Assembly (NCBI RefSeq): GCF_035084215.1
Contig: NC_090333.1
Span: forward strand, 26,722,001 to 26,786,000
Origin: Heptranchias perlo
Taxonomy: Eukaryota
Length of the DNA stretch: 64,000 bases
Reading direction: 5' to 3'
Shown: positions 31,491-42,100 of the stretch, one piece after another
Layout: each line of letters starts with the position of its first letter
Numbering within the stretch: the first letter of the stretch is position 1
The notes under the pieces: model-generated
Databases searched by the model: none
What the model saw: only the letters and a program-made list of their open reading frames with translations
What the model was told of the DNA's origin: nothing
Position numbers and translations under genes: made by a program

Positions 31491-31708
31491 TGCATACAAT
31501 ATTCAATAATAGGACACAAATAGCAATCAGTCCCCCTCCACCTCCACCTGGCTGAACTTGTTCTTATGTTGACTCCACTCACTTCCTCCAAATAAAAGGT
31601 GTCCCTATGGGTCCCAGCTATGCCTGTCTTTTTGTGGGCGAGGTGGAACATTCTTTGTCCCAGTCCTACTCAGGTCCCCTCCCTCACTTCTTTTCCCCTC
31701 CCTCACTT

Positions 31709-31796
31709 ATTTAAAATAAAATTGCTGGACTATAACTTGGTGTTGTAAAATTGTTTACAATTGTCAACCCCAGTCCATCACCGGCATCTCCACATC
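31709..31796 (+). mobile_element. 5'-truncated copy of the young Penelope-like terminal repeat
   Basis: Matches 39117-39204 base for base by eye. Confidence 0.8.
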
Positions 31797-31875
31797 TTTT
31801 TCCAGTACATTGATGGCTGTATCAGTGCCGTTTCCTGCTCTCGCCCCGAACTGGAAAATGTCATCAACTTTCCTT

Positions 31876-32058
31876 AGGTTGAGTCATTGAATACATTCAA
31901 GGCTGAGTTAGACAAATTTTTGATCAGCAAGGGAGTCAAAGGATATGGGGAAAGGGCAGGAAAGTGGAGTTGAAGTAAAAATCACATTAGCCATGATCTC
32001 ATTAAATAGCAGAGCAGGCTTGAGGGGGCGAATGGTCTACTTCTGCTCCTATCTCTTA
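31876..32058 (+). mobile_element. CR1 LINE 3' end nested in the Penelope-like element
   Basis: Shares the CR1 tail (agccatgatctcatt...gcagagcaggcttgagggg...ctcctat) with the 7700-7840 region. Confidence 0.75.
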
Positions 32059-33798
32059 TGGTTGCTTCCAATTTCCATCCTTCACATGTTCTACCTCTGA
32101 CTCTTCCCTTCCTTGACTTATCTATCTCCATTCCTGGGGATAGGCTGTCAACTAATATCTACTATAAACCCACCGACTCCACAGCTACCTTGATTACACT
32201 TCCTCCCACCCCACTTCCTGTAAGGACTTTATTCCATTCTCCCCATTTCTCCATCTCCGTCGCATGTGTTCTGACGATGCCACCTTCCACACCAGTATTT
32301 CCATTGTGTCCTTTTTCCTCAACCGAGGATTCACCTTCACTATAGTTGACAGGGCCCTCAACCGTGCCTGTCCCATTTCCCGCATTTCTGCCCTCACTCC
32401 TTCCCCTCCCTCTCAGAACCCTTGTCCTCACCTTCCACCCCACCAGCCTCCACATTCAACGGATCATCCTCCGCCATTTCCACTACCTCCAGCGCGATGC
32501 CGCCACTAAACATATCTTCCCGTCCCCTCCCCTTTCCGCATTCCGAAGGGACCATTCCCTCCCCAACATCCTGGTCCACTCTTCCATCATCCCCAATACC
32601 CGCTTCTCTTCCCACAGCACCTTCCCGTGCAAGCGCAGCAGATACAACACCTGCCCTTTCACCTCCTCCCTGCCCACTATCCAGGGCCCCAAACATTCCT
32701 TCCAGAAGAAACAGCAATTTACTTGTACTACTTTCAATTTAGTATACTGTATTCACTGCTCATAATGCGGTATCCTCCATACTGGGAAGACGAAACACAG
32801 ATTGGGTGACCACTTTGCTGAACCCCTCCATTCAGTCCGCAAGCGTGACCCTAATGTTCCGGTCACTTGCCATTTTAATTCTCCGTCCCACTCCCAATCT
32901 GACCACGGCCTCCTACATAGTTCCACTGAAGCTCAGCAAAATCTCGAGGAACAGCACCCCGTCTTTCCATTAGGCACTTTACAACTTTCTGGACTCAACA
33001 CTGATTTCAGTAACTTCAGATCATAACCACTGCTCTTATTTACAGCTCCTCCAGACCCATCTTTTGTTTCTTTACTTGACTCATAACCACCCTCCTTGCC
33101 TTGCACCATCACCCCTTTTGTCATTTAATCACTCCTCCCTCCACCCTATCACAGACCTTCCCTTCCCCTCCCCCAACCTCCTTAACAATTTCCAGTACTT
33201 TCAAGTATCTTTTTTTTTCCTTCAACAGTGCCAAAGCAGATCCTATAATCAGACCCTATCCAGGGGTTGTGTGACAATTACAATAAAGCAAAAGTAAACT
33301 TCTTAATGCTACCAGGGAGCAGGCTCCAATTTGGATTTAAAGTGATACCTTAATTATTTTCAACATTCATCACATTTATGAATGTTTACCTTGTAATGTT
33401 CGACTCGAGTTCTATCAAAAGGACAATACTGGATTAAAAAAATCTGGTCTTTGGCTCCGAGAATTATGGAAATGCTTTGCTCAATTCAGTGATTTACAGC
33501 CTCACCTTTCCCTATAAGAGGCAAACATGCCACATAGGGAACTGCGAACCCACAGTCCACCTTTTCTGATGTGAACAGACACTACAAAGAGATAGAGAAC
33601 ACAGACAAGACACTGTAAGGGAAGTGAAAACTGATCAACTGGTCAATTCATATTGTAAGAACTCTGGGTTTGGTATCCCGACAAATATGTCAATGAACCA
33701 GACGAATCATTAAGCCCCATTCGCCTTAACTCCTCACCAAGGAACCTTCTGGGGTTTACTGCCCAGCTTAGGTCTAGGAGTGAATGATGCCTAAATTT

Positions 33799-36147: not shown

Positions 36148-39100
36148 CTTTGATGAGAAAGATACAAAATCTCCAGGTTAAAAGAATGCATAAAACTGCA
36201 GCAGGTTTAACTCTATTTGTTCAAATTTACTGTCAACAGTCAACATCAACAACTACTTTCAAATTGTTACTCTTTAATGCTGGTTGGTTTGACTTGAGAA
36301 GATTTACTAGCAAAGAAATATATAAAAAGTTTGCTTTCTTTTAAAATATTTCCTCTTAACTTCCCCACTTCCATGCTCCCCTATTTTAGGTGACAGGACA
36401 GGACCGGCCATGCTGCAAATTTTTCCCCTCAGTCACATTTACTGCCACTCAGTCAATGTGACCTATTTCACCCTGATTGAGAACAGTCACATTTTAATCA
36501 GTCAAGGCTGCAATTTAAATAGCAAAGGAGGGAGAGAAAAAGCAATTCTCAAATTTAAAAAAAATTATAACTGAAATATTCTGTGTTTGGGGCTGTGATT
36601 TTCCACATCAGTCTCAGTTATCCCATGAAAAGAGGCACTTCACACCATCAAGACTCAGTTGTTTCTAACCATTCTCCGCTGCTCAACTCAAAGCACCAAA
36701 AATAAAGAATCGTGCAAAAAGGATCCTGCTGGCACGATTCTATAATGGCCTAGCATGCATGCCTTTCAATTTGTAATATTATAACCCAACACCAACATTA
36801 TTAGGAAGTGCTGCCTGCAAGCAAGAGAAAAACAAATAATGTAGTCAAGCCAACCTACGCCATTCCATAGCTAGATCAGCAGGGGCACAGGCAGCAACCT
36901 TGGAGCAAATTGCCATCAGTCAGATGGCCAATAATGTATGGGAACAAAAATAAAACAGTAAAATATATACATACATACCTGTTCCATTACATTATAAAAT
37001 ACTAGGTGAGTAGGAAAGGAGGTTTGACCAGAAAATCTTATGTTCAGCCACTTAAGTGGCTCCTCAAAAAATAAGTCAGCTTCATCAATATAGCTATTAT
37101 TTCCAGTCAGGTCTGGAGGACATTCCAGAAAGTGCATTTTCACTGGGCAATGAACATGGCTGTGGAGAAATGACAAAGAATTAAGCGAGACAGGCAAGCT
37201 TCATGCACCACACAATTACTGAGAATAAGTATTTTTTGTTAATTATTTCCTCCTTGCCTGCCTTCTTTTGTCTCCCCACATCAAGTGACTTTTCCAGCTG
37301 TGAGAATGGATCGGAGGCCTACTCCCAGATCCCTGCCAATACCCTTATAAGCAGCCCTCCAATTTTCTCTCCATTTCCATGAAGAAGTGGATAATAAAGT
37401 ATTTCACATTAGGGATTTGTTTTTCAAAATTACAAAGCATCAAGCAGGACCAGACATTATGAAAGGGAGGTCTGCGTTTTCTCTTTGAAATGTGATAGTT
37501 CTCCTGTATTTTTTGGATAACGTTGCTTTGGGGGATGCAGTTGCGTTGGAAGGTTATGCAATTTGGACTTGTCACCACTTCCTTGACTGTTACCCCCCAA
37601 TTTGCAGTCAACTGCCTGGAGATGCATTTGTAGGAGAGTTAATGTCCTTTTCATTCCCTTTCCTCTGGTCAAATGCATCAATATTGCTAACAGTCTAGGT
37701 GAGTCACTCCAGGCATGCTTTGAGCACCTTCTATTACTGGATTAGGTCCACTAGTTTGCTTACTTTCTTCACTGGGAATGACATTGTGGTGGATAAAGAG
37801 AGAATAACGTCCTTACTATACACAAATACTGGTACTGAGTACCTTTCCATTAAAAAAAAATCACTGGCTACTTAAAAATGTCATTTAGATTAATGGCCAG
37901 AGAACTACAGATCATACATAATTTCCAATACATCCATTCAATTTTCCAATATAGCATTGAAAGAACTACATACCTTGCATTCATTCATGGCCTTAGGACG
38001 TTCCAAAGCATTTCAAAGCTAATGAAGTACATTTTTTGAAATGTAGTCACTGTTGTAATGCAAGGAAATGCAGCAGCTAACTTGCAACTAGCAAGGTCCC
38101 ACAAATAGCATGAGATGTTGGTTGAGGGATAAACATTGGCCAGAACATAAGAACGCCCCTGCTCTTGGAATAGTAAGTCCACCTGAGAGGGCAGACAGGG
38201 TCTCAGTTCAATGTCTCATCCGAAAGACGGTATTCTCAGGCAGTGCAGTACTCCCTCAGCACTGCACTGATGTGTCAGCCTAGATTATGTGTTCAAATTT
38301 ATGGAGTGGGGCTTGAACTCACAACATTCTGACACAGAGGTAAGAGTGCTACCACTGAGCCAAGGCTAACACTGACTCTGCAACAATATTTGCATTTAAA
38401 ATTTTAAAAACATACAAACTACACAACTGTATTTGCTGAAGATCAGCATTCATTTCATAGATTCTATCATACAATAGTGCAAGATATAGGCTTTGGGGGA
38501 GGGGAAAAGGGGAAAAATAATGTCTATTTCATTGTAGGCAAGACGATCAGCTGCTCCTGAGCTGTAACACAATTCTCGCAATTATCAGAGGGCATTATTG
38601 ATGAATTTACCAATATTCTAAAATTAGAACGAGAACTCGATCACATGTACTATGATAGAGAACTTACTAAAGACATGAGGAAAAATATCAAACTTATGAC
38701 CCATTCTACCATCAGTCTTTACTAAATAAATAGTGACTATGAGAAAAGCCATTCCCCCATCTCAGTTCATCCATACAGAAAGAACATACAGTGCCTTCAT
38801 AACAAATCAGAAGCTTTGCTGCCAGGTTACCTTTTTACTTGTATTTAGATGTCACGGACATTGCTGGAAAATGAGTCACTTCCTCCAACGCTGAACTCAC
38901 TGGCACCCAATATTGCAAAGCTTTGGTTTTAAACCCCATACAGCTGTAGTCTCACCCCATTTCTACATTTGTAAACAATTTTACAACACCAAGTTATAGT
39001 CCAGCAATTTTATTTTAAATTCACAAGCTTTCGGAGATTTTCTCCTTCCTCAGGCAAATGTTTCAAGATCTTGAAACATTTGCCTGAGGAAGGAGAAAAT

Positions 39101-42100
39101 CTCCGAAAGCTTGTGAATTTAAAATAAAATTGCTGGACTATAACTTGGTGTTGTAAAATTGTTTACAATTGTCAACCCCAGTCCATCACCGGCATCTCCA
39201 CATCATTTCTACATTAGCTGTTTTTGCTCTATACTTAACGTGCCTATAGAATGGTGTTGAATGGCAAGGCATCAGGAAGAACAAGGAGGGCTCTTCTCTC
39301 CCCGGCAGAGTGTCCTTACAGAGTTGCTGAACATGCTGCATCACATCCAGTGTTCCGCGCTGGTGAATTAAGCCAGTATACAGAGCTAGACAAAGATTAG
39401 AAAAAAGCAGAACACAGACTGCCGGCTTCTTCCACGCTTTCAAATTAGCCAATGAGTAGCCTATACAAAAAAGGGAATAAAACCAAATATTTATTACATG
39501 ATTCCACTTAAGTGAATACAAATGTAAAAAAAATCTAAAGCCTATAACATTTTCTGTACTTAAACAGGAGTAAATAATATAATGGACCAGTAAATAATTT
39601 GAACTATATATTCCAGTGAAGTGCATACTTTTGTAAAAATTATGCATTTTACCAGATTTACATTCATATTTCAGTCAAAGATTGCATAGTTTAAGATTGT
39701 AACTCAGGAGCTTGTTGAAACAAAGTTAAAATATAAAAACATATATACCACTACCCCATTCATAATGTCACAACAGGAGAGAGCTACAAAAATACCTGGC
39801 AACAATCTGCCTCTGGAAATAAACAGGCTGAAGTCAATGAGATGTTATATCTTTTAAATAATCAATTTGAATGCATTTCTCCTTTTAAGAATCTTAAAAT
39901 GCTCATCCATTCTCCATTTTTCAAAGCCAAGCATTTCATGTGGAAAACCTTTTAACTTATGATTTTTTCTTTTAAAATCTAAACAGTAACAGTTACACAA
40001 GTCAAGTGGGTTTCTTACATGAGGTAGAATTATCAAGAGGATACTTACCACAAAACACCATGCAGAAAGGCATTACTGGATAAATAAACCTGAATTCTTT
40101 GTGACTTAAGAAACTGTAATAAAGAAAATATCTATATAAGTTTTAAAGCGGGTATTCCACAGATGACATTTGAAAGTGTACTGTGTACATGTGCCTAAAC
40201 CTCGTAGTGCTGCATGTCAATGCATCAGCATGCTGTGCACACATTTCCTCAAATGTTAATCTCTCTACACCATCCAGATGGAGCAAGGCAGTGAGCAAAG
40301 GGGAAGAGGTAATCAACTCAACCACTCATGCGCCTCCTAGTCTCTGCTTCAAAACAGAACAGCTTGTGTGTCTGCTCTCAGGGAATGAGATGGGGGTGCA
40401 GAGATCAAAATAAGCTACCTCATAACTACCACCTTTATGTAGCAAGTATTTAGTCACCCCATAATTTGTACTTCTATTTCTCCCAATTCTAAATTTCTGC
40501 ATTACTTCCCAAAACAACAAATTCTTCTACATTATGAACAGTGCATATTTTATGGGAAAAGTAGATAACCATTTGAAATAGGAGGATACAGGGCTACTGG
40601 AAGACAGCAGGGCAGCAAGATTAGTTCTGGGTTGCTCCAGCAAAGAGCTGGCACAGACATTTTGGGCTCAATTTTAAAACTGAGCCGGGAAGGGGGCGGG
40701 CAGGGAGGGGGGTCAAATTGAGGACGGGAAACCCATTAGTACGGGTTTCCCGGATGTCCTTACAATTTTGACGTAAGGACATCTTTTATTTTTTTTGTCG
40801 GTTTCCCGCCCAACTGACCGGCCTGATTGACAGGCTGGTCACAGTTGGACGGGAGACCAGCCAGGGAGAGGACAAGTTCAGGTAATTCTGCAGGTAAGTC
40901 TGTTTGTATGGATGGAGGGGAGCACGGGGGTCATGAGTCATGGGGGGAGGGATTGGGGGTCAGTCACGGGGTGGGGGGGGGGGTAAATCAGGATCGGGGG
41001 TCATCACAGGGGTCCGCGATCGTTGAGAGGGAGGATCGGGAGTGGGAAGGATCGGAGTCGGGGGTCTGCGATCGGTTGGGAGGGTTGGGGGGGGGGTCGA
41101 TGCAGGTAGGCTTGTTGGGCCTGGGGGGAGCACTCCTGCTCCTCCGGGCCCACAAGCTGTGCCTTTCTAGGCACCTACCTGTTAGTCTCGGGCCGTCTCA
41201 CCTCCTTTCACAAAACAGAAGGCCGGGGAATCCCGGCCCCCGGGGTTGAAATCGGAAAGTTCAGAAAAATGGAGGCCCAAAGCCTCCTTGAAAAGTTTTA
41301 AGGCCTGACCCGCCTCCTGGGAGCGGGTCGGTTGCCCGCACTTCTTCCTGCCCTGGTGAAAACTGGAAATGGGCGGGTTGGAGGCGGGTCTGAAATGGTG
41401 GCAATTTTCAATACCCTCCACCCCCAACCCACCCATTTTTCACTTAAAATTGAGCCCTTTGGGTCAAATAGTTTGTAAATTCCATGATTAGGATTCTGCT
41501 CATCTTCAATCCTTCTGTGCTATAAGCTTCCATGGTTCTGTGTTGCCAAACCTTGCTTCCACTTTGTACGTTCGCAGGTCAGGAAACAACCATTTGAGAG
41601 AGTATAGAGGGTGGAGAAAAAGAGAGGAGAACTCAAAATCAGAAGGGAGAGATTTACACCTTATTGGTTTGCAGCACTACATTAAAACAGGAATAAAACA
41701 GGATTAGAATAAATTTTTGCATAGGACAATAACTTATAAAATGTAATAAATATTAAAGTGCATATTTGTGAGGTTATGCAGCTTCACCAATATAAATTAT
41801 TAAACTGGATAAAGATTTCACTAATCAACTAAAAATGAATTCTATGAACTTGCATCAACGACAGGCACCTTTAATATCTTCTTGTAAAGATCATATTGTT
41901 CTGCTCTTAGCTGTCAAGAGTATCTTACAAAAGCAGCAACTCCATTGAACATGGTTGCCAAAAAAAAAGAATCAGAGAGCATGGAGTGAGTTACAAGGCT
42001 GAATCTAATTTCAGGACTTCAATATGTGTAAAACCACAAAATTGAAATAGTTTCAAATCCATGTTTAGGATTTTGATCCTGTCTTCAATCCCAGCTAGCC

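Follow-up and report, generated by a model that had tools for sequence, protein, structure and literature searches.

A probable short Penelope-like retrotransposon end with head-to-head hammerhead motifs in a PIGB intron of the shark Heptranchias perlo

Endonuclease-bearing (EN+) Penelope-like elements typically leave insertions with an inverted, 5′-truncated copy at the 5′ end and a tail of 30-40 bp at one end (PMC8557442). Head-to-head repeats with palindromes at their junctions, flanked by duplications of 8-10 bp, are described in PMC3846280, where self-priming was proposed. According to PMC11167929 both target strands are cut and extended and two start sites bound the tail; by its account, how Penelope integration is completed is not yet settled. 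The same study reports that ribozyme cleavage requires the protein and is dispensable for insertion in vitro. The minimal hammerhead of these elements was defined in PMC4209133 by an extra nucleotide after A9, a G10.1-C11.1 pair and palindromic positions 15.2-16.2; the monomer was inactive and the activity of the dimer low, and hammerhead pairs on opposite strands, 100-700 bp apart, are mentioned there. Non-LTR retrozymes, which also bear hammerheads, have been reported in one cartilaginous fish (bioRxiv 10.64898/2026.07.22.740005). Here we describe an insertion in intron 10 of PIGB, found in a stretch of 64,000 nt of Heptranchias perlo DNA (contig NC_090333.1, 26,722,001 to 26,786,000; "the window", whose positions are used throughout). 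With a probability of about 85% we consider it a 246-nt non-coding end of a Penelope-like retrotransposon, likely recent and polymorphic, whose hammerheads are predicted to be silenced by a hairpin. Its parts are as follows.

38958..38969, no strand: target-site duplication, left copy CATTTCTACATT, the final base common to the palindrome
38969..39068, minus strand: inverted, tail-less arm, the sense strand in PIGB pre-mRNA; pairing extends to 38965 with one mismatch, and its end matches the family end cluster 39172-74
39069..39168, plus strand: direct arm, the 5′-truncated terminal repeat of the element
39169..39206, plus strand: one-sided tail between two 3′-end clusters of the family, its final CAT overlapping the target duplication
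39204..39215, no strand: target-site duplication, right copy
39123..39128, plus strand: AATAAA; mirror copy at 39014-39009 on the PIGB strand, predicted from sequence and folding to be paired

A preliminary description of this DNA had reported a perfect 200-bp palindrome at 38969-39168 flanked by a 12-bp target-site duplication. The palindrome is confirmed: all 100 of 100 pairs between 38969-39068 and 39069-39168 are perfect, without a spacer at the centre (39068/39069), and beyond the edge one mismatch is followed by 3 extra pairs, reaching 38965/39172. The runner-up among spacer-less palindromes in the window has arms of only 9 nt. The direct repeat CATTTCTACATT is likewise exact (per-site chance 1.6e-7 from base composition) and shares 1 nt with the element at its left edge and 3 nt (CAT) at its right edge. 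Its right copy, however, does not touch the palindrome, from which it is separated by 35 nt of element tail (39169-39203) that the preliminary description did not name. This one-sided tail measures 34-38 nt and is bounded by two 3′-end positions of the family. The insert itself contains no open reading frame (ORF).

To place the locus within its family we used contigs of the best-matching sample, namely the DNA runs X2 and X4 and the run X5 (one sample), matched against the region 39045-40200. X5 was taken as an RNA run by guess; it shows a spliced joint. The matching contigs number 14,345 in X2, 14,839 in X4 and 3,203 in X5, and the zero contigs from X9 (organism B) carry no evidential weight. 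Summed DNA depth reaches 3.0-3.9 million over the element compared to about 10 on the flank, which is not a copy number. The family is abundant, dispersed and 5′-truncated. Among the best 18 of 365 rows, the best-supported loose ends lie behind 39205-07 (47+87+40 contigs in X2 and 52+90+49 in X4) and behind 39174/39172 (17 and 38 contigs). These two clusters, 34 nt apart, coincide with the outer end of the direct arm and that of the inverted arm, respectively, and this match of arm ends to the 3′-end clusters of the family is new here. Variation of at least 5% occurs at only three places: 39133, 39168 and, in X5 alone, 39143. An X5 contig of depth 40.6 jumps back by 124 nt, from 39206 at the tail end to 39083 at the ribozyme start; this joint reflects some member of the family in head-to-tail or circular form.

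A second family copy lies within the window.

31709..31800, plus strand: second copy of the family, identical at 91 of 92 nt, with neither hammerhead core nor inverted arm

This copy is plainly 5′-truncated and begins 4 nt after the predicted cut site. It is preceded, in the region 31677-31810, by an extra 12-nt target repeat, CCTCCCTCACTT, so that its duplication is untidy. A decayed ORF at about 31500-33050 surrounds it. Judged by eye from its YIDD-like and CxxC motifs, this ORF looks like an older Penelope-type reverse transcriptase and endonuclease.

Each arm of the insertion carries a hammerhead motif, at the coordinates originally proposed.

39078..39118, plus strand: minimal type I hammerhead motif, predicted cut after U39112
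39019..39059, minus strand: minimal hammerhead motif, mirror copy, predicted cut at 39025/39024

The plus motif consists of a stem I of 6 bp, two of them G-U (39078-83/39113-18), CUGAGGA (39084-90), an unpaired extra A (39091), a 5-bp stem II (39092-96/39100-04), GAAA (39105-08), the palindromic AGCU (39108-11) in place of stem III, and GCUU. Position numbers follow the established hammerhead nomenclature. The order of CUGANGA, extra base, G10.1-C11.1, GAAA, palindromic 15.2-16.2, UH and stem I fits the minimal type I form of PMC4209133, in support of the earlier proposal of a minimal type I hammerhead with a palindrome at stem III. Stems I and II are both present in the minimum-energy fold of a single arm, stem I being absent from the centroid, and the full arm of 138 nt has no folding advantage over shuffled sequences (z -1.22; 27 of 200 as good). 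No variant of at least 5% falls within 39084-39112, yet just 3 such sites occur across the full element, which is too young to show selection. The 14 nt at the centre of the palindrome (39069-39082) may be subfamily sequence or filler. Just before 39083, 46 and 45 DNA contigs diverge, with a consensus ending in TCA; the window reads TTG at that place, and two pairs of stem I become G-U as a result. As a local source of these 14 nt only matches with 2 mismatches were found outside the palindrome (4 vs. 1.55 expected for all).

The two motifs stand 18 nt apart on opposite strands, and therefore a cis dimer is not possible at this locus. As the preliminary description had anticipated, folding predicts that the 100-bp hairpin masks the ribozyme. 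The predicted energy of the palindrome is -163.3 kcal/mol, whereas a double hammerhead reaches -13.7 and the monomer motif -7.3; in the palindrome fold the ribozyme core has an unpaired probability of 0.0007, and core and AAUAAA are more than 99% paired. At 8 of 8 transcript lengths tested, 78-98% of the emerging sense arm is predicted to be paired. Because the antisense arm is transcribed first from either side, the sense ribozyme and AAUAAA would zip into 100 bp of double-stranded RNA as they emerge, and by symmetry the predicted masking of both holds for either direction of transcription.

We then compared the motif with sequences from outside the shark by scanning viral contigs, prokaryote genomes and metagenomes with a degenerate hammerhead pattern. 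There were 0 loci in the viral contigs, 0 in the prokaryote genomes and 5 in the metagenomes (L001-L005). Three of these, L001, L004 and L005 (one common flank), were set aside as chance; L001 has no similarity beyond the pattern (713 of 2000 shuffles). L002 and L003 are identical in their overlap and were counted once. Their similarity to the arm exceeds what the pattern itself demands (0 of 2000 shuffles as good); they also keep both stems, with one compensatory pair in stem II and 31 of 33 cells paired, compared to 17-49% in slid controls. L003, a marine-metagenome contig, contains a GIY-YIG-like ORF (48-581) and a related terminal repeat (1319-1470) that includes the tail region, the motif lying 750 nt downstream of the ORF. 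The nearest Atlas clusters are GIY-YIG (0.97; the Pfam family is on 23-34% of members). Judged by its sequence, L003 links this type of motif, though not the shark family itself, to a putative endonuclease ORF.

How recent is the insertion? Records 8 and 16 (2099 and 2098 nt; both DNA runs) agree with the window at every letter of 39204-40200, and 614 unaligned letters precede that match. On a filled allele the contig would be expected to run on into the tail. If the 614 letters, which are not themselves displayed, are left flank, record 8 spans 38344-40688. In that case one end, 38344, falls 27 nt within a repeat that stops at 38370, and the other comes close to a repeat ending at 40658; contig ends are expected at repeats, which favors the left-flank reading. 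We infer an empty allele with a single target copy in this sample, so that the insertion is likely polymorphic and missing from some chromosomes. The two arms are identical. Together with the probable empty allele this makes a recent insertion likely, in line with the young age first proposed.

The layout suggests how such a structure could arise. The endonuclease of the element would nick both strands with an offset of about 12 nt; reverse transcription would be primed by one target end at the distal start, 39206, and by the other at the proximal one, 39168-72; both new strands would stop just upstream of the ribozyme and be joined there. Priming at two start sites would give an inverted arm that lacks exactly the tail, and the zero spacer would require either a short self-complementary end or a fold-back. 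For the last step we give even odds to strands that were joined by way of a short self-complementary end. A single cDNA folded back on itself is a less probable but serious candidate, and self-priming on an antisense template appears unlikely.

The preliminary description had also considered the hairpin as an ADAR substrate. In X5, G is present at 39143 in 44,586 of 559,225 depth units (8%; 52 contigs), whereas the DNA of that sample has G in 56 of 3.05 million and in 13 of 3.37 million (<0.01%; 2 contigs each). This hints at A-to-I editing of family RNA, and to that extent the idea gains one RNA-only A>G site; the signal is, however, a single family-wide one and is not assignable to PIGB or to this locus. 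A few highly expressed G-bearing copies would fit the counts also. The context of 39143, CTATAAC, resembles a branch point, and none of the splice joints listed uses it.

The exon beside the insertion matches GPI mannosyltransferase 3 (PIGB), most closely that of sharks and rays (92% to Pristiophorus, 78% to Chiloscyllium and Narcine), and tblastn places the gene in 12 exons on the minus strand.

39244..39460, minus strand: PIGB exon 10, ending at the GC donor AG/GCACGT
37160..39243, minus strand: PIGB intron 10, GC-AG, 2084 nt, containing the insertion

The donor AG/GCACGT at 39244/39243 joins the acceptor side at 37159 (exon 11) in frame; a GT 4 nt past it was rejected as an alternative donor because of a frameshift. 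The insertion had been placed 40 nt into a GC-AG intron of PIGB, which is correct for the tail, beginning 38-41 nt into the intron, but not for the hairpin itself, which begins at 72-76 nt. Elsewhere in the gene, intron 2 (~54905 and ~51320-51300, minus strand) has the donor ATATCCTTT and a branch-like CCTTAAC, and the reading frame places its end at AA instead of AC. By comparison with the consensus it resembles a minor-spliceosome intron with unusual ends.

Could the same insertion alter PIGB on the filled allele, with the hairpin near the weak GC donor, or an acceptor-like site, lowering or redirecting the splicing of intron 10? The donor agrees with 6 of 9 consensus letters, and an acceptor-like site, TTTTCTCCTTCCTCAG/G, is present in the antisense arm, where it ends at 39084 (39099-39083, minus strand; 13 of 15 pyrimidines, CAG/G). 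In predicted folds the pairing around the donor differs between the filled and the empty version. On the other hand, most of the donor is paired in either version, the difference points in no clear direction, and the acceptor-like site is buried inside the hairpin. Moreover, an X5 contig of 541 nt (depth 105.8) has exons 9 and 10 joined and continues to 39237 with exactly 2 differing letters; just these letters distinguish exon 11, which begins CCATGTT, from the intron, which begins GCACGTT, and thus the contig fits splicing from the GC donor. This is the sole RNA contig over 39240-39278. A joint 39243-39084, which would mark the cryptic acceptor, is not among the X5 contigs listed, in which rare forms are dropped and alleles are not separated. 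The lack of X5 cover over intron 10 carries no weight on retention. Intron 10 is likely spliced normally, and we regard an effect of the insertion on its weak donor, as suggested earlier, as improbable. Solo antisense copies in introns, by comparison, might be exonised through the strong-looking acceptor.

Two further explanations would remove the retrotransposon altogether, and both appear far less probable. A fold-back or assembly artefact might be suspected because both DNA runs have a contig across the target site without the element, while no filled junction is among the rows listed. A fold-back chimera, however, would mirror the flank instead of rejoining the right flank, and it would not produce a 12-nt duplication or stop at the two end clusters of the family; in addition, contig simplification would be expected to lose low-depth links into a very deep repeat. 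Slightly more remote still is a miniature inverted-repeat DNA transposon with a chance hammerhead-like motif. Such an element would be short, non-coding and abundant, with an inverted repeat and a target duplication, as seen here. Yet the repeat is not terminal on the right, where the 35-nt tail follows, the second copy is 5′-truncated and has no inverted arm, the 3′ ends of the family fall into two clusters 34 nt apart, and a related motif follows the GIY-YIG-like ORF of L003.

Several points weigh against a Penelope-like retrotransposon end with hammerheads. Rfam returned no hammerhead model at E<=10, so that the check originally suggested came out negative; the 41 and 2 matches of the two scans were hairpin-driven, of microRNA type and all under gathering scores. 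Covariation between the arm and L002/L003 rests on two distinct sequences and is not significant (147 of 500 shuffles). Pfam found nothing in the L003 ORF, giving 0 of 3 matches over L003 and the old element at 32168-32762, and we linked no reverse transcriptase or endonuclease ORF to the shark family itself. The palindrome centre and both filled-allele junctions do not appear among the 24 of 33,042 pieces listed, and the central 14 nt (39069-39082) may not belong to the element, given the 46 and 45 DNA contigs that diverge before 39083. PMC11167929 reports initiation without homology to the cut DNA, whereas short overlaps are present at both junctions here. The inverted truncated copy, the one-sided tail and the short duplication nevertheless match the published signature, and we retain the Penelope-like origin first put forward for this locus.

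Could such loci be useful beyond the single case? The system is already known, and the value of this locus is that of a clean specimen. A family that is young and abundant, whose junctions are unmutated and which has empty alleles, could reveal how the inverted arm is made, and a GC donor with a heterozygous copy 40 nt away would offer a natural test of hairpin editing or splicing disturbance; neither the origin of the inverted arm nor an effect on editing or splicing is established by this locus alone. A speculative and unlikely reading is that Penelope stumps arranged head-to-head muzzle themselves: because the antisense arm would mask ribozyme and poly(A) signal either way, they would be tolerated in introns. 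A still-active family would then seed shark pre-mRNAs with many perfect hairpins of 100 bp that serve as the main ADAR substrates, an Alu-like role in a lineage that has no Alus, with allele-specific editing at polymorphic copies.

Our literature searches, judged by titles, found no shark-specific account, and the available part of PMC4209133 describes no shark family; a named family may exist in Repbase, Dfam or supplements, which lay outside these searches. Among described hammerhead carriers, the non-LTR retrozymes (bioRxiv 10.64898/2026.07.22.740005) are similarly non-coding and hammerhead-bearing, with a proposed origin in Penelope terminal repeats, but they are head-to-tail tandems that allow dimer folding, whereas this locus is head-to-head. 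The minimal Penelope-like hammerheads of PMC4209133 have in common with the motif the type I order, the extra nucleotide after A9, G10.1-C11.1 and the lack of a stable stem III; here, in contrast, stem II has 5 bp (7-8 in Schistosoma), stem I contains two G-U pairs and the site is CUU. Poseidon PAc of Anolis carolinensis (PMC11167929) resembles the locus in its two initiation sites bounding the tail and in its AT-rich target, represented here by ATT at both ends of the duplication. The ORF of PAc, however, starts inside the ribozyme, while there is no start codon in stem II here and the tail lies 55-95 nt downstream. The closest likeness is to the insertions of EN+ Penelope-like elements (PMC8557442; PMC3846280), with which the locus shares the head-to-head inverted 5′-truncated copy, the junction palindrome, the one-sided tail of 30-40 nt and the short duplication. 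It differs from them in that only 138 nt of the element end are left, without an ORF, and in a duplication of 12 nt (8-9 discounting overlaps) as opposed to 8-10 in the rotifer examples of PMC3846280. Penelope insertions commonly take this layout, as PMC8557442 and PMC3846280 document, and the locus is thus an ordinary insertion of this kind and not a new system.

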